Source of the DNA: a virus
Lineage: Duplodnaviria; Heunggongvirae; Uroviricota; Caudoviricetes
DNA: 14,893 nucleotides
IMG/VR virus record: IMGVR_UViG_2737471841_000009
Location: 1-14,893 of that record
Direction: 5' to 3' (one strand)
A program made the position numbers and the translations under genes. The notes beneath the pieces were generated by a model. It was not told the DNA's origin and did no database searches. It was given only the letters and a program-made list of their open reading frames with translations. This document shows positions 6,486 through 13,525 of the stretch, one piece after another; the first letter of the stretch is position 1, and the number at the start of each line of letters is the position of its first letter.

Positions 6486-6620
6486 AGCTTTCTCCTTTTT
6501 AGGTAGTTAAGTTGTTACGAGTTGCAAGAATACAACATTAACAACTTTTATCACAACTTTTAGGTGTTGGAAAGCTAAAACATAAAGTTGTAACCTCATC
6601 AAAAAAGAGAGGGATATGTT
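6486..6620. promoter_or_regulatory. OR-like divergent promoter and operator region between cro and cI
   Basis: 135-bp AT-rich intergenic region with repeated half-site-like motifs: AAGTTGT at 6509 and 6585; ACAACTT at 6541 and 6553; AGGTGTT at 6562. The 11-mer CATAAAGTTGT (6581-6591) recurs at OL (8234-8244). Confidence 0.65.
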
Positions 6621-7307
6621 GTGAAAACACTGGCAGAACGATTAAAGATAGGTAGAGAGAAAGCTGGCATGAGCCAAGCTCAACTAGCTGAAAAAATTGG
6701 ACTTTCACAACAATCTGTAGCCAAAATAGAGAATGGCGAAACTCTACAACCGCGCAAAATTAAAGAAATTGCAAAAGTTTTAGGTGTATCACAAAAGTGG
6801 TTACAACTTGGTATTGAAGACAACGCATCCATACCTGATCTTGTTGTAAAAGAAGCAGAAAGCACCGCATTAGACCCCGATATTTTCGTAAACATTCCTG
6901 TTTTAGATGTCGAGTTATCGGCAGGTAACGGATGTCTGGCTGAAATAGTTGAATCAGCTATTGACTGGTTTCCGTTAAGAAGAGCAGATTTGAGAAAATC
7001 TGGCGTATGTGCATCTAATGCCAAGATCGTAAAAATATGGGGGAACAGTTTATTACCGGTTCTCAATAATGGAGATCTTGTTGCCGTTGATATTTCTCAA
7101 ACCGTTCCTATTCGTGATGGCGATCTTTATGCCGTACGAGATGGTGTATTGCTAAGGGTTAAAATACTTATCAACTTACCTGACGGTGGCTTGATTCTTA
7201 GAAGCTTCAACAAAGATGAGTACCCAGATGAAATACTCACCTTTGAAGATAGACGAGCCAGAATTCATGTTATAGGTAGGGTATTCTGGTCATCGCGAAC
7301 TTGGTAA
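6621..7307 (+). CDS. CI-like prophage repressor (XRE-type HTH plus S24 LexA-like autopeptidase domain)
   Basis: GTG start at 6621 preceded by GAGAGGG. N-terminal HTH (MSQAQLAEKIGLSQQSVAKIENGE). An Ala-Gly candidate cleavage site (LSAGNG) and a Ser/Lys dyad (WGNSLLP and LLRVK) are present. Confidence 0.85.
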   Translation: MKTLAERLKIGREKAGMSQAQLAEKIGLSQQSVAKIENGETLQPRKIKEIAKVLGVSQKWLQLGIEDNASIPDLVVKEAESTALDPDIFVNIPVLDVELSAGNGCLAEIVESAIDWFPLRRADLRKSGVCASNAKIVKIWGNSLLPVLNNGDLVAVDISQTVPIRDGDLYAVRDGVLLRVKILINLPDGGLILRSFNKDEYPDEILTFEDRRARIHVIGRVFWSSRTW

Positions 7308-8180
7308 TGCATCGAAAAGCATTTCTTCAGAAATAATTTTAAGTTTTGCACCATTATCATCCCTATAAGATATAGCCTTTTCGATCTTCCTTCCGTGACT
7401 TGAGAATTTCCAATCACGGGAGGAAAGCGTCCCAATTACTAAAAAATCCAACTTTTGAGTAATTCCACTACTGATGTTCCCACCAGCATTTTTAATCAAA
7501 TTTTCAACTACGGCTCTCTTTCCTGCAACAAAAGTGCCTGTAAGACAATAGGTTTTACCCTCTAACTCTATCGAAGCCCCTACATCAATAGGCAGCCTGG
7601 TCGCCAAACCATCCACCACCCCACTTTCCAAGTCACATCCTGTGAAGTCTACTAATGCCTTATGTAGAGTTAAACTCTCATCTTCAGTAATAACACCATC
7701 TTTAAGAATTTCCTTTACAAGTGCATAAAGTTTTTTTCCTGGGTAGTTGTTCTTCAAAGCTCCATTTTGCTCAAGCCACCAATTAAGATATCTTATTTCT
7801 TCTTGAGTTAAGTTCCGATCAGCAATTAATCCTTTACATAGTCCATTAAGTAAATGGACATCTACATCCTTGGAGTAAAAATCAATTTCAGGGATATCAA
7901 GAATTTCCCTCTGTATTTGGAGAAGGCTATTTTTAAGGTCATCACGTTCTTCTGATGTGATTATTCCATCCGCAAGAATATCCGACACCCGTGCTGATAG
8001 ACTTTTTATAACTCCATTATTGATAATCTGCTTTGCTTCAAGTAACCATGTATCTAAGTAAAGAACCTCCTCTTCACGGACAACTCCATCTGCAATGATT
8101 CCATCAATGATGCTAATCAAGTTAGCAAATAACTTGTCCCGGTTCTGTGTGTAATTAAAAGCGTAAAGCGCGTCTTCCAT
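7290..8180 (-). CDS. Moron protein: four tandem ~40-aa repeats plus a C-terminal BRCT domain; candidate exclusion or defence effector
   Basis: ATG at 8180 preceded by AGGAGG (the ORF track extends to a GTG at 8210). Repeats centre on IIADGVVREEEVLYL, ILADGIITSEERDDL, LIADRNLTQEEIRYL and ILKDGVITEDESLTL. The C-terminus (GKTYCLTGTF...LDFLVIGT...KLKIISEEMLFDAL) matches the BRCT fold pattern of LigA-type BRCT domains. Confidence 0.8.
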   Translation of the reverse strand: MEDALYAFNYTQNRDKLFANLISIIDGIIADGVVREEEVLYLDTWLLEAKQIINNGVIKSLSARVSDILADGIITSEERDDLKNSLLQIQREILDIPEIDFYSKDVDVHLLNGLCKGLIADRNLTQEEIRYLNWWLEQNGALKNNYPGKKLYALVKEILKDGVITEDESLTLHKALVDFTGCDLESGVVDGLATRLPIDVGASIELEGKTYCLTGTFVAGKRAVVENLIKNAGGNISSGITQKLDFLVIGTLSSRDWKFSSHGRKIEKAISYRDDNGAKLKIISEEMLFDALPSSR

Positions 8181-8230
8181 ACAACCTCCTTTTTTTGATA
8201 ATCCTTGCACTCCTTGGCTACTCGTTCAAA

Positions 8231-8290
8231 CCACATAAAGTTGTTGACAACATTCAAAACCACAACTAAATTACAACTTAAAGGTGTTAA
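8231..8290 (+). promoter_or_regulatory. OL/PL-like operator and promoter region for the early-left operon
   Basis: -35 TTGACA (8244-8249), 17-bp spacer, -10 TAAATT (8267-8272). Operator-like motifs are shared with OR: CATAAAGTTGT (8234-8244), ACAACT (8262-8267), ACAACTT (8273-8279), AGGTGTT (8282-8288). Confidence 0.55.
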
Positions 8291-8382
8291 AACAACGAAC
8301 AGGCAGGACGCCCACGAAGTAGCCGCCGGTGGCGTATGAATGACCGGATGATTCGTTAAATACTATGTGTAAGAGAGCGCAA

Positions 8383-8586
8383 ATGAACCGTTATTTCACA
8401 TGCTCGTTTTGTGGCGCAAACGAGCTGCAGGCAAAAAAAATCATCGCCAAAGGCGGAAAAGATGAAGTTGCTATCTGCTCTGAGTGCGTAGTCTTGTGTG
8501 TCGGGGCATTAATCAATATCAGCACAACTATTCAGTTCACACCAAATGAGAATGCGCCTTTAGATGCGCGGAAATCTGGAGGTTAA
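8383..8586 (+). CDS. Small ClpX-type C4 zinc-finger protein; first gene of the early-left operon
   Basis: ATG at 8383 preceded by AAGAGAG (the ORF track starts at an upstream ATG at 8365). The motifs CSFCG and ICSECVVLC match the ClpX N-terminal zinc-binding domain pattern (CSFCGK...ICDECV). Confidence 0.6.
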   Translation: MNRYFTCSFCGANELQAKKIIAKGGKDEVAICSECVVLCVGALINISTTIQFTPNENAPLDARKSGG

Positions 8587-8594
8587 AGAACAAA

Positions 8595-8870
8595 ATGAAA
8601 GTCCAGATTTTAAACAATAACTGTGAAGTCGTTTGGTCATACGACATAGCCGCCCCTGTAGATCAGAGCGGCGATAGCTGGACCAATGGGAAACATCAGA
8701 TTATGGCTGGAGTTGTGTTCTCTTTACGCCGTGCTTTGGAACAGGCTGAAGTATTTCCATCAGACCCTGAATGGAAATGGCCTTTTTCTATTTGTCCAAA
8801 TTCGGAGAGCACATTTCAGAAAATTGGTCAGAAAGTCGCACTCGAAGAGCATCAGCCAACTGTTTCCTGA
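8595..8870 (+). CDS. Hypothetical protein (91 aa)
   Basis: ATG at 8595 with GGAGG 12 nt upstream, co-oriented with the PL operon. No recognisable domain. The 3' end overlaps a convergent ORF, so the true end is uncertain. Confidence 0.4.
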   Translation: MKVQILNNNCEVVWSYDIAAPVDQSGDSWTNGKHQIMAGVVFSLRRALEQAEVFPSDPEWKWPFSICPNSESTFQKIGQKVALEEHQPTVS

Positions 8871-9033
8871 TTTTTTCAGGTAACTCGTCGGCATCGCAGA
8901 AACAACAACGCTCGATCATGTTGAAAGCCGATTCGTAGAACTGTTTCTGCTGAGTGTCGCTGAGACAGGAAAAGAGCGACGTTACGATGATTTTATTAAT
9001 TGCATTATCAAGTTCTTTTTCATCAAAAGTCAT
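8788..9033 (-). CDS. Hypothetical protein (81 aa), antisense to the early-left operon
   Basis: ATG at 9033 preceded by AAGGA at 8-nt spacing. Cys-containing (CCFC) and acidic. Overlaps the 3' end of the 91-aa plus-strand ORF by 83 nt. Confidence 0.4.
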   Translation of the reverse strand: MTFDEKELDNAINKIIVTSLFSCLSDTQQKQFYESAFNMIERCCFCDADELPEKIRKQLADALRVRLSDQFSEMCSPNLDK

Positions 9034-9129
9034 TTGATTTTCCTTTTATGTATACGGGCTTAAAAGGATACCACCGAGCCTGAAGTGGTGAAAAGACAGG
9101 CACATAACAGCTAAGTATTTTCAACCAAA

Positions 9130-9450
9130 GAGAATCCTTAGCGTTGTGGTGAATGCGGCTCAGCGCACGCGGGTTAAGGTTGAGGCTGACAGTCGACCTT
9201 CTGTGGATACCCACCCGTCTGGTGTGCAACCTTCGCCAGGCACCGGGAGGCACCCGGCACCACAACTTTATGCTGTGTGTAGTCCTGGCGGTACCAGTTT
9301 GTACCCTTGCTTCCGGCTGGTACCGTCCTTTTTACAAAACAGAGAAGAGCATCACCGGACGACGGGCTCATAACCCAATCCATCCGGGCGGCTGCTACCG
9401 CAGGTGTTCTTCTCTGTTTTGTGGAGAAACTAATCGGCCTTGCAGGGTCG
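9130..9450 (+). other. GC-rich, ORF-poor structured segment; candidate structured RNA or cis-regulatory element
   Basis: All frames carry Arg/Pro-rich ORFs with no SD. Perfect 15-bp inverted repeat 9334-9348 / 9408-9422 (ACAAAACAGAGAAGA). An 11-bp stem 9287-9297 / 9317-9327 is followed by CTTTTT. A small hairpin CCGGG-AGGCA-CCCGG lies at 9243-9257. Confidence 0.4.
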
Positions 9451-9470
9451 ATATGATGAGGAGCAGCAAA

Positions 9471-9833
9471 ATGGCTAGCGAACGCAGTACTGATGTGCAG
9501 GCATTTATCGGGGAGCTGGACGGCGGCGTATTTGAAACCAAAATCGGCGCAGTTCTCAGTGAAGTCGCTTCCGGTGTGATGAACACGAAAACCAAAGGTA
9601 AGGTCTCACTCAACCTGGAAATCGAACCATTTGATGAGAACCGTGTGAAAATCAAACACAAACTCTCATATGTTCGCCCGACTAACCGCGGGAAAATTTC
9701 CGAAGAAGACACCACCGAAACGCCGATGTATGTCAATCGCGGTGGTCGCCTGACTATTCTGCAGGAAGACCAGGGACAATTACTGACTCTTGCCGGTGAA
9801 CCTGACGGAAAACTCCGCGCAGCAGGTCATTAA
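9471..9833 (+). CDS. yfdP: YfdP-like prophage protein (120 aa)
   Basis: ATG at 9471 preceded by GAGGAG; length and sequence match my recollection of K-12 CPS-53 YfdP. The ORF track's upstream extension (from 9153) lies in GC-rich non-coding-looking sequence and is rejected. Confidence 0.6.
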   Translation: MASERSTDVQAFIGELDGGVFETKIGAVLSEVASGVMNTKTKGKVSLNLEIEPFDENRVKIKHKLSYVRPTNRGKISEEDTTETPMYVNRGGRLTILQEDQGQLLTLAGEPDGKLRAAGH

Positions 9834-9898
9834 TATCGTTCTTAATTAACTGATTATTTATCTCATCACTGAATATCTTTATATAGTGAGGACTTATT

Positions 9899-10723
9899 AT
9901 GTCTCAGAACTTAGACGCAACCGCAATTAATCAAATCCATGCCCTTATTTCTGCTCAGGGTGTTAATGAAATTATCAGTAAGATTGGTGCCGATGCTGTG
10001 GCATTGCCTGAGAATTTCCGCATTCATGATCTGGAAAAATTTAATTTAAATCGCTTCCGTTTCCGTGGTGCGCTTTCCACTGCCAGCATCGATGACTTTA
10101 CCCGTTATTCTAAAGATCTTGCAGATGAAGGCACCCGCTGCTTTATCGATGCTGATAATATGCGTGCCGTCAGTGTGCTTAACCTGGGTACTATTGATGA
10201 ACCAGGTCACGCAGATAACACCGCCACTCTCAAACTGAAAAAGACAGCACCGTTCTCTGCTCTGTTGTCTGTTAATGGCGAGCGTAACTCCCAGAAATCA
10301 CTGGCAGAATGGATTGAAGACTGGGCCGACTACCTTGTGGGCTTTGATGCTAATGGTGACACCATTCAGGCAACAAAAGCGGCTGCGGCGGTCCGTAAAA
10401 TCACGATTGAAGCAAACCAGACCGCTGATTTTGAAGATAATGACTTCAGCGGCAAACGCTCCCTGATGGAGTCTGTCGAAGCGAAGACCAAAGACATTAT
10501 GCCAGTGGCATTTGAATTTAAATGCATTCCGTTTGAAGGTCTGAAAGAACGTCCGTTTAAATTACGCCTCAGCATTATCACTGGCGATCGTCCGGTACTG
10601 GTTCTGCGCATTATTCAGCTGGAGGCGGTGCAGGAAGAAATGGCTAACGAATTTCGTGATCTGCTTGTTGAGAAATTCAAGGACAGCAAAGTAGAAACCT
10701 TTATTGGTACTTTCACCGCCTGA
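9899..10723 (+). CDS. yfdQ: YfdQ-like prophage protein (274 aa, uncharacterised DUF family)
   Basis: ATG at 9899 preceded by GTGAGGA. Length and N-terminus ([17 protein letters not shown]) match recalled K-12 YfdQ. Colinear with the yfdP to yfdT order. Confidence 0.7.
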
Positions 10724-12045: not shown

Positions 12046-12395
12046 TGGAGCCATACAGCCTCACACTCGATGAGGCCTGTCATTTTCTCAAGATATCCAG
12101 ACCGACTGCCATTAACTGGATACGCACAGGGCGTCTTCAGGCAACACGCAAAGATCCCACTAAGAATAAATCTCCTTACCTCACAACACGACAAGCCTGC
12201 ATTGCGGCTCTTCAGTCTCCGCTGCATACTGTCCAGGTGAGCGCGGGTGATGGCATAACAGAGGAAAGAAAATGTCACTCTTCCGCAGAAGTGAAATATG
12301 GTACGCCAGTTTCACATTGCCGAACGGTAAAAGATTTAAACAGTCTCTTGGAACAAAGGACAAAAGGCAGGCGACAGAGCTCCATGACAAGCTAA
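12045..12395 (+). CDS. xis: Excisionase (P22 Xis-like, 116 aa)
   Basis: ATG at 12045 preceded by AAGAGGTGA. N-terminal HTH ([26 protein letters not shown]). 116 aa matches the P22 Xis length. Sits immediately upstream of int and overlaps it by 124 nt. Confidence 0.7.
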
Positions 12396-13435
12396 AGGCT
12401 GAAGCATGGCGGGTCAGCAAACTTGGTGAAATACCTGATATGACGTTTGAGGAAGCGTGTGTCAGGTGGCTCGAAGAGAAAGCACATAAGAAATCACTGG
12501 ACGATGACAAAAGCCGGATCGGATTCTGGCTTCAACATTTCGCAGGGATGCAACTAAGAGACATCACTGAATCAAAAATTTATTCAGCGATGCAGAAAAT
12601 GACAAACCGGCGTCATGAGGAAAACTGGAAACTCAGGGCAGAAGCATGCAGAAAAAAAGGGAAACCTGTTCCAGAATACACGCCAAAACCAGCGTCCGTT
12701 GCAACGAAGGCTACGCATCTTTCATTTATAAAGGCCCTGCTAAGAGCCGCAGAGCGTGAATGGAAAATGCTGGATAAGGCACCAATTCTTAAAGTGCCTC
12801 AACCGAAGAATAAACGTATCCGCTGGCTGGAGCCTCATGAAGCACAAAGGCTGATTGATGAATGTCCGGAGCCATTAAAGTCTGTTGTTGAATTTGCACT
12901 GGCAACAGGCTTAAGACGCTCGAACATCATCAACCTTGAATGGCAACAAATAGACATGCAGCGCCGGGTGGCATGGATAAACCCGGAAGAGAGTAAATCA
13001 AACCGCGCAATTGGCGTTGCGCTGAATGATACTGCATGTCGCGTATTGAAAAAACAAATCGGGAATCATCACCGTTGGGTATTTGTATACAAGGAAAGCT
13101 GTACCAAACCAGACGGAACGAAAGCGCCAACGGTCAGGAAGATGCGGTATGACGCAAACACAGCCTGGAAAGCGGCGCTGAGACGAGCAGGTATTGATGA
13201 TTTCAGATTTCACGACTTGAGACACACCTGGGCAAGTTGGCTGGTTCAAGCCGGAGTCCCGTTGTCAGTGTTACAGGAAATGGGAGGCTGGGAGTCTATC
13301 GAAATGGTTCGTCGATATGCTCACCTCGCACCTAATCACCTTACCGAACATGCACGGCAAATAGACTCGATCCTGAACCCATCGGTCCCAAATTTGTCCC
13401 AGTCAAAAAATAAGGAAGGTACTAATGATGTGTAA
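12272..13435 (+). CDS. int: Tyrosine-recombinase integrase (P22 Int-like, 387 aa)
   Basis: C-terminal catalytic region [15 protein letters not shown]...VRRYAHL (R/H-x-x-R/Y signature). The gene ends 14 nt from the 3' end of thrW, the known P22 attachment tRNA. Length equals P22 Int. Confidence 0.85.
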
Positions 13436-13470
13436 CTTATTGATTTAAATGGTGCCGATAATAGGAGTCG
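13436..13470. other. Prophage–host junction (att core region) at the 3' end of thrW
   Basis: The interval between the int stop and the 3' part of the tRNA; tRNA-integrating phages carry the core homology over the tRNA 3' end. Exact core limits cannot be set without the other prophage end. Confidence 0.4.
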
Positions 13471-13525
13471 AACCTACGACCTTCGCATTACGAATGCGCT
13501 GCTCTACCAACTGAGCTATATCGGC
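13450..13525 (-). tRNA. thrW: tRNA-Thr (anticodon CGU), 76 nt with encoded CCA
   Basis: Reverse complement reads GCCGATATAGCTCAGTTGGTAGAGCAGCGCATTCGTAATGCGAAGGTCGTAGGTTCGACTCCTATTATCGGCACCA. Acceptor stem GCCGATA/TATCGGC, anticodon loop TTCGTAA, T-loop GGTTCGACTCC. Adjacent to proA as in E. coli. Confidence 0.93.

Follow-up and report, generated by a model that had tools for sequence, protein, structure and literature searches.

The closest described relatives of the locus considered here are small RNAs of enterobacterial prophages. STnc100 copies are expressed in EHEC, one of them confirmed by Northern blot (PMC5331693), and the PasD small RNAs, which are relatives of STnc100, bind Hfq (PMC8550237; bioRxiv 10.64898/2026.05.13.724894). 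DicF, from the dicBF operon of the E. coli K-12 prophage Qin, occurs as a 190-nt species, the 5′ end of which is made by RNase III, and as a 53-nt species for which this is done by RNase E (bioRxiv 10.1101/2023.04.14.536235). A further point of reference is formed by the put RNAs, i.e. RNAs of ~70 nt with two stems that are transcribed from early operons (PMC9378689).

The DNA analysed here (hereafter the window) is a stretch of 14,893 nucleotides from IMG/VR virus record IMGVR_UViG_2737471841_000009, and it carries a structured island that is a non-coding RNA cassette in the PL-operon leader of an SfV/e14-type lambdoid prophage. The island consists of two modules, a divergent STnc100-type unit with its terminator (9121-9336) and then a second RNA, here called E2 (9334-9422), and it belongs to a widespread family of modular RNAs, with DicF and elements of phage P1 among its members. 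Its features, preceded by the predicted promoter, are as follows.

8244-8272, + strand: predicted PL promoter, TTGACA-17-TAAATT, scoring 10/12 in a promoter scan (presumed function; context, outside the island)
9110-9142, + strand: simple 13-bp hairpin directly 5′ of the STnc100-like body (repeat search; fold -11.8 kcal/mol, z = -6.4)
9121-9336, + strand: divergent STnc100-type unit (Rfam RF02076) with multi-branched body, single-stranded spacer and terminator
9143-9266, + strand: body of the unit, closed by a 9-bp helix of GTTGTGGTG (9143-9151) and CACCACAAC (9258-9266), 100% complementary
9243-9257, + strand: conserved hairpin CCGGG-AGGCA-CCCGG within the body
9267-9286, + strand: conserved single-stranded spacer UUUAUGCUGUGUGUAGUCCU, a candidate seed
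9287-9333, + strand: intrinsic terminator, 13-bp stem (9287-9299/9315-9327), a C and U5 (9329-9333); fold -20.5 kcal/mol, z = -3.7
9334-9422, + strand: E2, three-way-junction RNA with P1 helix (9334-9353/9403-9422), P2 arm (9355-9387) and P3 hairpin (9388-9401)
9360-9382, + strand: P2 apex, GGG (9364-9366) and CCC (9374-9376) around the loop CUCAUAA (9367-9373; CAU at 9369-9371), with 3′ flank AAUCCA
9423-9430, + strand: conserved tail GGAGAAAC directly 3′ of E2, present in nearly all yfdP-type loci with any downstream gene
9433-9452, + strand: small hairpin that separates E2 from the ribosome-binding site of yfdP (-10.4 kcal/mol with z = -0.6, the energy alone not being significant)

Location and coding status of the island

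A first-pass annotation had described the region as a GC-rich island inside the early-left operon, and both parts of this description hold: the GC content is 0.545-0.585 over 9101-9400 versus 0.395-0.45 in the flanking DNA, and a sigma-70 promoter lies upstream amid operator-like repeats (ACAAC/GTTGT), which flank the predicted PL and occur likewise in the cI-cro intergenic region (6500-6600). The predicted PL lies ~850-1150 nt upstream of the island, which forms part of the yfdP-xis-int leader; a stretch of ~600 nt is untranslated here, between the end of an ORF at 8870 and the start of yfdP (ATG at 9471). The overlapping ORFs reported in several frames are indeed present (9146-9373 and 9307-9456 on the + strand; 9174-9383 and 9023-9265 on the - strand), and the claim that ribosome-binding sites are missing stands for the island itself, with the correction that the site of yfdP (GAGGAG, 9458-9463) lies just beyond the interval first described. 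A consensus scan of 8300-9900 gave no + strand promoter for a small RNA between 8870 and 9121, and the sole Rfam match at gathering thresholds in the whole window is thrW. At other loci the place of the 9433-9452 hairpin is taken by a different GC-rich hairpin (GGCGGT..GCCGCC).

At exactly this place (window 9146-9456), PGAP annotates a frameshifted pseudogene ('frameshifted hypothetical protein'), the e14 homologue is annotated in K-12 as the 103-aa protein YmfH, and some phage records list hypothetical proteins here, all of which would suit a YmfH-family coding sequence that has since decayed. However, of 118 loci only 6 keep the ymfH frame open over 95 codons or more, and the lengths of the region (283, 327, 328, 335, 341, 343, 345, 346, 348 nt and so on) differ by indels that are not multiples of three. 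The island ORFs have no match in Pfam. Moreover, the substitutions are compensatory in RNA helices, the G-U pairs are found on a single strand, and the ymfH ORF extends from the closing helix of the STnc100-like unit to shortly past E2, as would an accidental ORF over a GC-rich structured RNA. A coding origin is thus highly improbable, and the island is not a dead or decayed gene. The earlier suggestion of a scar left by a deleted gene falls with it, ymfH being the sole candidate for such a gene.

The STnc100-type unit and its terminator

The STnc100 model (RF02076) matches the unit over its full length (model positions 1-206) with 39.5 bits and E = 4.6e-7, which falls short of the gathering threshold of 47 bits; the homologous units of e14, phage P1 and ST64B score 29.2, 33.4 and 35.1 bits, respectively. 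A related prophage has a canonical STnc100 copy (175.6 bits) in its late region, which shares the hairpin CACCGGGAGGCACCCGGCA with the window unit; a 19-nt hairpin, at 9243-9257 in the window, is identical in the two. The features by which STnc100 is recognised, being a closing helix, the CACCGGGAGGCACCCGG hairpin and a 3′ intrinsic terminator, are all found in the window unit. The closing helix is retained in the centroid fold, and in phage P1 it reads GTTGCGGTG/CACCGCAAC, which constitutes a compensatory change relative to the window. Both end motifs of the body are present in 114 of 150 E2-bearing loci, with a mosaic interior, and the fold energy of the body alone is not significant (z = -1.7 to -1.9). 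The simple hairpin at 9110-9142 occupies the position that is taken by E2-like long hairpins in P1, Pantoea phage PA-1 and Qin. Identity with PasB or PasD was rejected, as the probe and seed sequences of PMC8550237 are absent from the window.

The spacer that follows the body lies where DicF has its 5′ part in Qin, and variants from E. coli, Salmonella ST64B, phage LLS, Mixta and Citrobacter all contain the stretch UGCUGUGUGUAGUC; a site complementary to this putative seed was not found within the window. For the terminator, an 11-bp stem followed by CTTTTT had been noted before, which RNAfold extends to 13 bp with a 15-nt loop, followed by C and TTTTT (9329-9333). The consensus terminator scanner overlooked it because its loop limit is 8 nt. 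At the same position, 54 distinct homologous flanks carry a GC-rich hairpin with T4-T7, comprising at least 8 unrelated stem sequences. The earlier reading as a tL-like terminator is thereby borne out on comparative grounds, the hairpin and U-tract having been kept across dozens of phages with quite different stems.

Such conservation of the terminator position could also mean that the island is purely cis-acting punctuation, in which a tL-type attenuator would precede a large and inert hairpin that structures the long leader, blocks Rho loading or shields the 5′ end of the yfdP mRNA, with neither a small RNA nor a role in trans. The untranslated RNA between 8870 and 9471 and the strong structure in every module agree with this, as does the position of E2, which lies directly 3′ of the U-tract in every yfdP-type locus. 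An inert structure, however, leaves both the 22 invariant apical nucleotides of E2 and the spacer UGCUGUGUGUAGUC unexplained, and the modules are also found downstream of tRNA genes in late operons, as well as in the ban operon of P1, where no early-left attenuation is needed. In addition, STnc100, DicF and PasD are documented as stable small RNAs, so that punctuation in cis as the sole role of the island seems unlikely.

The presence of a terminator inside the PL operon of SfV/e14-type phages, which nevertheless have no annotated N homologue, also brings to mind a put-like, protein-independent antiterminator RNA, by which RNA polymerase would read through early-left terminators without N; the put RNAs are, after all, two-stem structures of early operons. 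Yet the elements lie ~850 nt from PL, E2 is downstream of the very terminator that would have to be suppressed, the rightward operon has no second copy (cmsearch finds a single site in the window), and late operons under the control of Q contain these elements too. HK022 putL is likewise not similar in sequence: in a comparison with the PL-nun region, in which putL was read directly, only chance words of up to 10 nt were shared, with the island at least 850 nt from PL. This possibility can hence be regarded as very remote.

The E2 RNA and its tRNA-fMet-like tip

The perfect 15-bp inverted repeat that had first drawn attention to the region is confirmed, 9334-9348 (ACAAAACAGAGAAGA) being the exact reverse complement of 9408-9422, and with G-U pairs it extends to 20 bp (9334-9353/9403-9422) rather than the ~18 bp proposed; a repeat search gave 25-nt arms with 84% complementarity. 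The repeat does close the 59 nt described as its loop, but this is not a plain loop, as it consists of two conserved hairpins. The fold of 9334-9422 has an energy of -45.5 kcal/mol versus -21.7 +/- 3.2 for shuffled sequences (z = -7.4), and 0 of 200 shuffles are as good. A comparative alignment for compensatory changes had been proposed as a check, and the E2 stems do covary. When 35 variants are aligned with MAFFT, 96.4% of the cells are paired versus 40-52% in shifted controls, with double-sided changes in 10 pairs versus 0-4. For 47 variants, including the Klebsiella and P1 types and aligned by fitting to the covariance model, 94.6% are paired versus 37-47% in controls, with double changes in 28 of 34 pairs. 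The P3 hairpin varies in length from 14 to 39 nt. With covariance model R1 the window E2 scores 109.5 bits on the + strand versus 42.1 on the - strand, the former being the score of a training sequence, since R1 was built from sequences that include it. Based on the G-U pairs and these strand scores, E2 was assigned to the + strand.

The window copy thus displays the three-way junction, the covarying P1, P2 and P3, and the apex GACGGGCUCAUWAYCCAAUCCA that characterise the motif. The covariance scan against Rfam that had also been proposed yielded the sub-threshold STnc100 match for the first half of the island, but no family for E2, even in a permissive scan, and E2 is a conserved RNA motif new to Rfam. 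Taken together, a unit of the STnc100/DicF type followed by a covarying three-way-junction RNA supports the initial reading of the island as a structured regulatory RNA. The tail at 9423-9430 appears to resemble the GGUGAAUG start of an STnc100-type body, its likeness to ...GTTGTGGTGAATG being conjectural. A site complementary to the E2 loop, comparable to seqA/seqC of P4 or a2/b2 of C4, was not found elsewhere in the window.

E2 is carried by 2808 of 5426 complete E. coli genomes (approximately half), and is also found in Salmonella, Klebsiella, Pantoea and P1 phages; the e14 homologue is located between ymfJ and xisE-intE. In the Klebsiella type the closing helix has 6-7 bp. A genome-wide pattern scan also gave non-enterobacterial matches, most of which lie in coding sequence and are due to chance, ~70 random 18-mer matches being expected in 596 Gb. 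One hairpin from Acidobacteriaceae (locus L160) has a neighbourhood without tRNA and with nothing obviously phage-like.

The most constant part of E2 is the apex of P2, of which 22 nt (alignment columns 28-49) are invariant in the 35 yfdP-type variants save for one A/U position. Of the 17 bases at 9360-9376, 16 match nt 26-42 of the E. coli initiator tRNA metZ, including three G-C pairs and the CUCAUAA loop, and 0 of 2000 shuffles score as well. In the wider family, the Klebsiella type has UCC for CCC, the P1 copies have UUCAUAU or GUCAUAU, and e14 lacks the CAU. Neither ARAGORN nor Rfam RF00005 calls a tRNA at 9334-9422, and a tRNA gene was rejected after ARAGORN runs with mitochondrial and low-threshold settings, which gave nothing sensible in window-type or Klebsiella-type copies. 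A remnant of an att site was rejected by reasoning, as the identity is limited to the anticodon arm and does not cover the 3′ half of the tRNA, the host phages use other integration sites (thrW, icd) and covariation is seen in the flanking helices.

Enteric VapC toxins cut tRNA-fMet within the anticodon loop, and anticodon nucleases are countered by phage tRNAs. It is conceivable, though not likely, that E2 is a trans-acting tRNA mimic, the initiator-tRNA-like arm of which would lure or sense a tRNA-fMet-recognising factor of the host or of a phage (e.g. an anticodon nuclease of the VapC/MvpT type, MetRS, or IF3 with the 30S P site), while the long helix merely packages and releases the tip. 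Besides the match itself, this would account for an apex that is invariant in the yfdP type while every flanking helix covaries, and for the retention of UCAU even in the divergent P1 copies. It would also suit the Klebsiella type, which directly follows tRNA genes and has an acceptor-like 6-7-bp helix with an RCCA end, as well as module 1 of phage P1, which holds a T-arm look-alike (GAGGGUUCGAAUCCCU) in a similar long stem. On the other hand, E2 has a C-A mismatch where the tRNA has its C28-G42 pair, nothing in a tRNA corresponds to the 3′ flank AAUCCA, the element is rejected by ARAGORN as well as by the covariance model for tRNA, any binding partner is putative, and a literature search found no precedent. 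The toxin of retron-Sen2 was triggered by an over-expressed e14 'ymfH' clone, which is this RNA array, but its authors read the result as a protein effect (bioRxiv 10.1101/2020.06.22.160242), and since the e14 loop is degenerate (CAU to AAU), the result cannot depend on an intact mimic. The stronger proposal, that E2 represents a new class of phage-encoded tRNA mimic on a processing stalk, freed from early or late transcripts to bind, titrate or trigger a factor that reads tRNA-fMet, is slightly less probable again. If it were true, K-12 YmfH, the reported retron-Sen2 trigger, would act as an RNA, and together with the T-arm look-alike of P1 it would imply that temperate enterobacterial phages hold tRNA-fragment decoys hidden as hypothetical proteins (ymfH, plp, upl). 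A mimic is compatible with the processing model given below, and addresses the role of the tip.

Proposed maturation and comparison with known systems

The best explanation, to which a probability of roughly two in three can be assigned, is that the cassette comprises an STnc100/DicF-like small RNA, a leaky terminator and an RNase III-cut E2 with a factor-binding tip. Upon derepression, or through leaky repression, most PL transcripts would stop at the terminator (9329-9333), which would yield the small RNA with the spacer (9267-9286) as its seed, while by analogy with its relatives the terminator and U-tail would bind Hfq. Its 15-nt loop and the short run of five U probably make the terminator leaky, such that some polymerases would continue into yfdP-xis-int. 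The read-through RNA may then be cut by RNase III in the 20-bp E2 helix, as at the long hairpin 5′ of DicF, which would uncouple the small RNA from the mRNA and free the E2 core, with the tRNA-fMet-like tip as a putative binding site for a tRNA-recognising factor. The earlier idea of a processing site agrees with this comparatively, in that the long inverted repeat is shaped like the hairpin 5′ of DicF in Qin. RNase III cutting does not, however, explain the invariant 22-nt apex or the 6-7-bp closing helix of the Klebsiella type.

An RNA cassette thereby replaces the annotation as hypothetical protein or pseudogene (ymfH in K-12) across approximately half of the complete E. coli genomes, and STnc100, DicF and the island elements share interchangeable modules. 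The combination of leaky terminator, RNase III and RNase E provides a concrete maturation model for a sizeable set of prophage small RNAs about which little is understood, and the E2 tip is a testable lead towards phage-host conflict over tRNA, including a re-reading of the retron-triggering activity of 'ymfH'. The cassette also bears on how xis-int is controlled in serotype-converting Shigella phages of the SfV type, since all transcription from PL has to cross it.

With respect to known systems, E2 resembles the RNase III stalks of rRNA precursors, T7 early mRNA, the lambda N-leader and sib, in that an RNA domain is enclosed by a ~20-bp helix formed by its flanks within a polycistronic phage transcript; its P1 helix, which contains two G-U pairs, attains the approximately two helical turns (~20 bp) of an RNase III substrate. 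The Klebsiella-type helix is too short for this, and RNase III can therefore not define the function of the family. With the initiator tRNAs (metZ/W/V, metY) and phage tRNA-like RNAs, E2 shares the anticodon arm and, in the Klebsiella type, the location after tRNA genes, the acceptor-like helix and the RCCA end. It differs from them in having no D arm and no T-loop, in the 20-bp closing helix of the window type, in its rejection by the tRNA-finding programs and in the conserved AAUCCA flank, which is not tRNA-like. The likeness to HK022 put is that both are structured early-operon RNAs of lambdoid phages without N, with no correspondence in sequence or position.

Like the STnc100/PasD RNAs of EPEC/EHEC prophages, the first module is prophage-borne and ~200 nt long, with a multi-branched body, a closing helix that starts with ...UGRUGAAU, a near-identical hairpin CACCGGGAGGCACCCGGCA just 5′ of the 3′ strand of this helix, and a single-stranded spacer before an intrinsic terminator. 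Unlike STnc100, it scores below the model threshold, its mosaic interior is unrelated, it is directly followed by E2, and it lies in the early-left leader, whereas STnc100 is a late-region RNA located downstream of Q and the tRNA array.

The relation to DicF is one of architecture. The order of a long hairpin, a GTTGYGGTGAAU...CACCRCAAC body, and a spacer with terminator is found in the dicBF operon of Qin and three times in tandem in phage P1. In Qin (locus L195) it comprises an E2-like hairpin at 873-958 (19 bits with R1, fold z = -3.3), a body at 951-1068, and DicF as the last segment at 1084-1135. The 5′ end of the 190-nt species would lie around L195 946-951, inside the 3′ strand of the hairpin, by our own length arithmetic from the DicF 3′ end and not from a published coordinate. 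The DicF model (RF00039) gives 15.7 bits for window positions 9274-9328 and 28.5 for the e14 homologue, both below the cut-off of 48, versus 76.7 for genuine DicF. The 5′ seeds are unlike as well (UGCUGUGUGUAGUCC versus UUUCUGGUGACGUUU), so that ftsZ and other DicF targets cannot be assumed. The long hairpin of Qin lacks the conserved tRNA-fMet-like apex and lies upstream of the body, whereas E2 in the window lies downstream of the terminator, and the analogy hence covers the type of hairpin and not an identical position. What the two loci have in common is an operon under a cI-type repressor, a spacer and terminator after an STnc100-like body (L195 951-1140 versus window 9143-9333), and similar terminator stems (GGCGGUAYCAG...), and in the case of DicF the published maturation from the polycistronic transcript is by RNase III (190 nt) and RNase E (53 nt).

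The island in its early-left operon

The window is an SfV/e14-type lambdoid prophage with thrW as its integration site. Positions 9000-9500 are 99.8% identical to Shigella phage SfV, where their counterpart has cI/orf33 on one side and orf32 (yfdP) on the other, after which come yfdQ, yfdR, xis and int. An upstream sigma-70 promoter is surrounded by ACAAC/GTTGT repeats, which also fill the cI-cro intergenic region, and is taken to be PL from this sequence context; with that assignment the island (i.e. the GC-rich stretch 9130-9450) would lie ~850-1150 nt into the + strand early-left transcript.

Features flanking the island
8244-8272, + strand: sigma-70 promoter from the promoter scan (TTGACA-17-TAAATT, 10/12)
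8365-8586, + strand: small ORF upstream of the island, ClpX-type zinc finger
8595-8870, + strand: second small ORF upstream of the island
9458-9463 and 9471: ribosome-binding site and ATG of yfdP, downstream of the island
12272-13435: integrase gene
13453-13525, minus strand: tRNA-Thr(CGU)

The 73-aa product of the first ORF of the PL operon (8365-8586) is a ClpX-type C4 zinc finger (Pfam PF06689, 1.4e-10) and may serve as a ClpX adaptor or inhibitor mimic. For a 306-aa ORF on the minus strand (7290-8210), Pfam detects a BRCT domain at the C-terminus (1.4e-6) and PADLOC gives a weak match to the candidate defence family PDC-S48 (2.7e-7); its insertion between cI and PL and its absence from SfV itself make it a probable moron or defence gene. 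A minus-strand ORF of 81 aa (8788-9033), preceded by a good ribosome-binding site, shares 83 nt with the 3' end of the second small ORF (8595-8870, +), and the K-12 e14 annotation has the same convergent pair (ymfI versus ymfJ). This minus-strand ORF would need a promoter within the RNA cassette, and a terminator-like hairpin is present on the minus strand at 9089-9070.

A predicted small-RNA unit and a three-way junction

All sequence statements of the first-pass annotation were correct on re-check of the window sequence, among them the raised GC content of the island (0.55-0.59 versus about 0.40-0.45 in its flanks) and its short ORFs, which gave 0 Pfam family matches. In a permissive Rfam covariance-model scan, which that annotation had proposed, 9121-9336 matched the prophage small RNA STnc100 (RF02076) over the full length of the model at 39.5 bits (E = 4.6e-7), short of the gathering score of 47 bits. 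The body of this unit is closed by a helix (GTTGTGGTG/CACCACAAC, 9143-9151/9258-9266) whose counterpart in the homologous element of phage P1, GTTGCGGTG/CACCGCAAC, shows a compensatory change relative to the window, and just inside its 3' strand lies a hairpin (CACCGGGAGGCACCCGGCA) that also occurs in the canonical 175.6-bit STnc100 of a related prophage. Both end motifs of the body are found in 114 of the 150 loci bearing E2 (i.e. the three-way-junction RNA at 9334-9422), its interior being mosaic. The body is followed by a conserved single-stranded stretch (UGCUGUGUGUAGUC) and then by a hairpin with T4-T7, which occurs at a constant position with stems of at least eight unrelated sequences and bears the signature of a functional intrinsic terminator. 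In the window this is the previously noticed terminator-like stem, of 13 bp (9287-9299/9315-9327), with C and U5 behind it (z = -3.7). In EHEC, STnc100 copies are expressed, one of them verified by Northern blot (PMC5331693), and the related PasD RNAs are Hfq-dependent (PMC8550237; bioRxiv 10.64898/2026.05.13.724894). As far as sequence comparison goes, the first half of the island represents a known kind of small RNA in a new variant that scores below threshold.

The canonical STnc100 lies in the late region of the E. coli O157:H- 493/89 prophage (L002 491-759), ~110 nt past an Ile-Arg-Arg tRNA array, and AgvB (56.2 bits) abuts it on the opposite strand; late-region spacers are thus densely packed with small RNAs.

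The perfect 15-bp inverted repeat described earlier is present as the outer portion of a 20-bp helix; it does close the reported 59 nt, which are not an open loop but two hairpins making a three-way junction with that helix.

Elements of E2
9334-9353/9403-9422: P1 helix, 20 bp
A9354: J12
9355-9387: P2, with internal loops
9388-9401: P3
A9402: J31

The 89 nt of E2 fold at -45.5 kcal/mol, versus -21.7 +/- 3.2 for shuffles (z = -7.4). BLAST and exact-pattern scans placed E2 in 2808 of the 5426 complete E. coli genomes. They also recovered it from SfV, SfII, SfIV, ST64B, LLS and many uncultured viral contigs, and from prophages of Citrobacter, Enterobacter, Kosakonia, Leclercia, Mixta, Erwinia, Phytobacter and Klebsiella. 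In a MAFFT alignment of 35 distinct variants, 96.4% of cells are paired (40-52% with partners slid) and double-sided changes occur at 10 pairs (0-4 slid) and in 60 cells (at most 13), covariation values reached by 0 or at most 1 of 500 shuffles. A wider set of 47 distinct sequences, with the divergent types aligned by R1 (the covariance model built for E2), gives 94.6% paired cells versus 37-47% slid and double changes in 28 of 34 pairs versus 7-15; all these figures carry the caveat of an alignment fitted to R1. The G-U pairs, together with the asymmetry in R1 score (109.5 bits on the + strand versus 42.1 bits on the opposite one), place the RNA on the + strand. The search for compensatory changes among homologues, likewise proposed at first pass, thus returned covarying E2 stems besides the P1 comparison, and the structured-RNA reading is borne out by both halves. 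No Rfam family for E2 emerged from the Rfam scan, and the second half of the island is a predicted RNA motif that is widespread and uncatalogued.

Coding potential, locus types and the E2 apex

The suggestion that the island is the scar of a deleted gene did not hold. PGAP annotates 9146-9456 as a frameshifted hypothetical protein, whose intact "parent" is ymfH of K-12 e14, an ORF spanning from the STnc100-like closing helix to just beyond E2. An uninterrupted run of at least 95 codons exists in its frame at only 6 of 118 loci, differences in region length are not multiples of three, and the length of the P3 hairpin varies between 14 and 39 nt, which argues against a decayed gene, as do the covarying stems. 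Because ymfH (b1142; minus strand, 370-714 of L193, K-12 e14, NC_000913.3 1200700-1204500) covers the same stretch as the STnc100-like body, the terminator and E2, YmfH is probably not a protein. The e14 copy of E2 retains its helices, but its loop is degenerate (UUAAUAA), consistent with decay in a cryptic prophage.

Among the 35 yfdP-type variants, alignment columns 28-49 (window 9361-9382, GACGGGCUCAUAACCCAAUCCA) are invariant bar one A/U, and the helices flanking this apex all covary. Positions 9360-9376 share 16 of 17 bases with nt 26-42 of the metZ initiator tRNA, including three consecutive G-C pairs and the CUCAUAA loop, a match equalled by 0 of 2000 shuffles. A tRNA gene is ruled out, since neither ARAGORN nor the Rfam tRNA model recognises E2. 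The most interesting open reading is that the apex would act as a tRNA-mimic decoy or trigger. This agrees with a preprint in which over-expressed ymfH is listed among the triggers of RcaT, the retron-Sen2 toxin (bioRxiv 10.1101/2020.06.22.160242), which may be an RNA effect given that YmfH is probably no protein, but the authors of that preprint assumed a protein, and the e14 loop is degenerate. Put-like antitermination and an att remnant were rejected on test or reasoning.

In the yfdP type, the long P1 helix is in every case directly 3' of the terminator U-tract, and GGAGAAAC follows irrespective of the next gene. In the Klebsiella type, P1 has 6-7 bp and E2 lies downstream of Q, directly 3' of tRNA-Asn or tRNA-Arg. 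These copies, from Klebsiella phages (1502-1581 in both L004 and L005, and ~15 viral contigs), start 5-6 nt past the tRNA, and their acceptor-like helix with a 3' end ...GGCC(A/G)CCA (RCCA) suggests tRNA-like maturation by RNase P and 3' trimming. In the third type (P1 and Pantoea PA-1), E2 is immediately 5' of the STnc100-like body. The P1 ban operon contains, between trnT and tciA, three tandem modules, each a long hairpin with a tRNA-arm-like core followed by a GTTGYGRTGAA...CACAAC body (about 928-1625, + strand, of L003, NC_005856 68577-71608); module 1 has a T-arm look-alike (GAGGGUUCGAAUCCCU) inside its long hairpin, and modules 2 and 3 score 33.9 and 40.6 bits with the E2 model. They overlap the minus-strand ORFs plp and upl, of unknown or only putative function, which may be spurious.

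Two further sequences resemble the apex. An intergenic hairpin in an Acidobacteriaceae MAG (PMHC01000083.1; L160 2553-2622, minus strand; 12-bp and 9-bp stems, z = -6.9) has the same 21-nt apex as E2 (GACGGGCUCAUAACCCAAUCC) and may be a distant homologue or, with ~0.5 chance matches expected in the database, a coincidence. In Gammaproteobacteria bacterium DTU037 (L178 3666-3741), a truncated initiator-tRNA-like sequence without a tRNA call by ARAGORN is identical to tRNA-fMet through to the anticodon arm and then runs CCCAAUCC, as in E2, joined straight to ...CCCGCAACCA.

Comparative data support, at the level of sequence, a non-coding and modular cassette homologous to STnc100 and DicF units, with a terminator conserved in position and a structured E2 RNA whose tRNA-fMet-like apex is invariant in the yfdP type. 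By comparison of phages, the earlier terminator reading stands for the positionally conserved intrinsic terminator; the finding is real and more than a terminator, comprising a small-RNA unit plus E2.

The Qin dicBF operon as a parallel

The dicBF operon of E. coli K-12 Qin (L195, NC_000913.3 1648300-1650300) has the same layout as the cassette modules of the window.

Modules in L195
873-958: long hairpin, weak E2-model match (19 bits), fold z = -3.3
951-1068: STnc100-like body, interior same as one E. coli variant of the window unit
1084-1135: DicF (76.7 bits), exactly in the spacer-plus-terminator position

In this region (L195 873-1342), a long hairpin precedes an STnc100-like unit whose last segment is DicF, and between dicF and dicB the spacer is taken up by another STnc100-like element (34.4 bits). 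As summarised in bioRxiv 10.1101/2023.04.14.536235 (citing Faubladier et al. 1990), DicF is excised from a polycistronic transcript: RNase III produces a 190-nt species by cutting at its 5' end, and the 53-nt DicF species comes from RNase E. Stepping back 190 nt from the 3' end of DicF leads, by own arithmetic and not from a published coordinate, to L195 ~946-951, within the 3' strand of the long hairpin; the published species is about as long as STnc100 RNA.

In the window, most PL transcripts would stop at 9329-9333, yielding a small RNA with the spacer as seed. The terminator, with its 15-nt loop and five U residues, is probably leaky, and RNase III would cut read-through RNA within the helix of E2, much as it does the Qin hairpin, which would uncouple the small RNA from the yfdP-xis-int mRNA. 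Such cleavage cannot be what E2 does across the whole family, as P1 of the Klebsiella type is not long enough for it; the apex may be a binding site for some factor.

Given the same layout in Qin, 9267-9333 is the positional counterpart of DicF. DicF-model scores (15.7 bits in the window, 28.5 bits in e14) are too low for DicF membership, and the 5' sequence differs, whereas the terminator stems are similar. As a variant of the prophage small-RNA/processing cassettes, the island yields one testable hypothesis and several annotation corrections.
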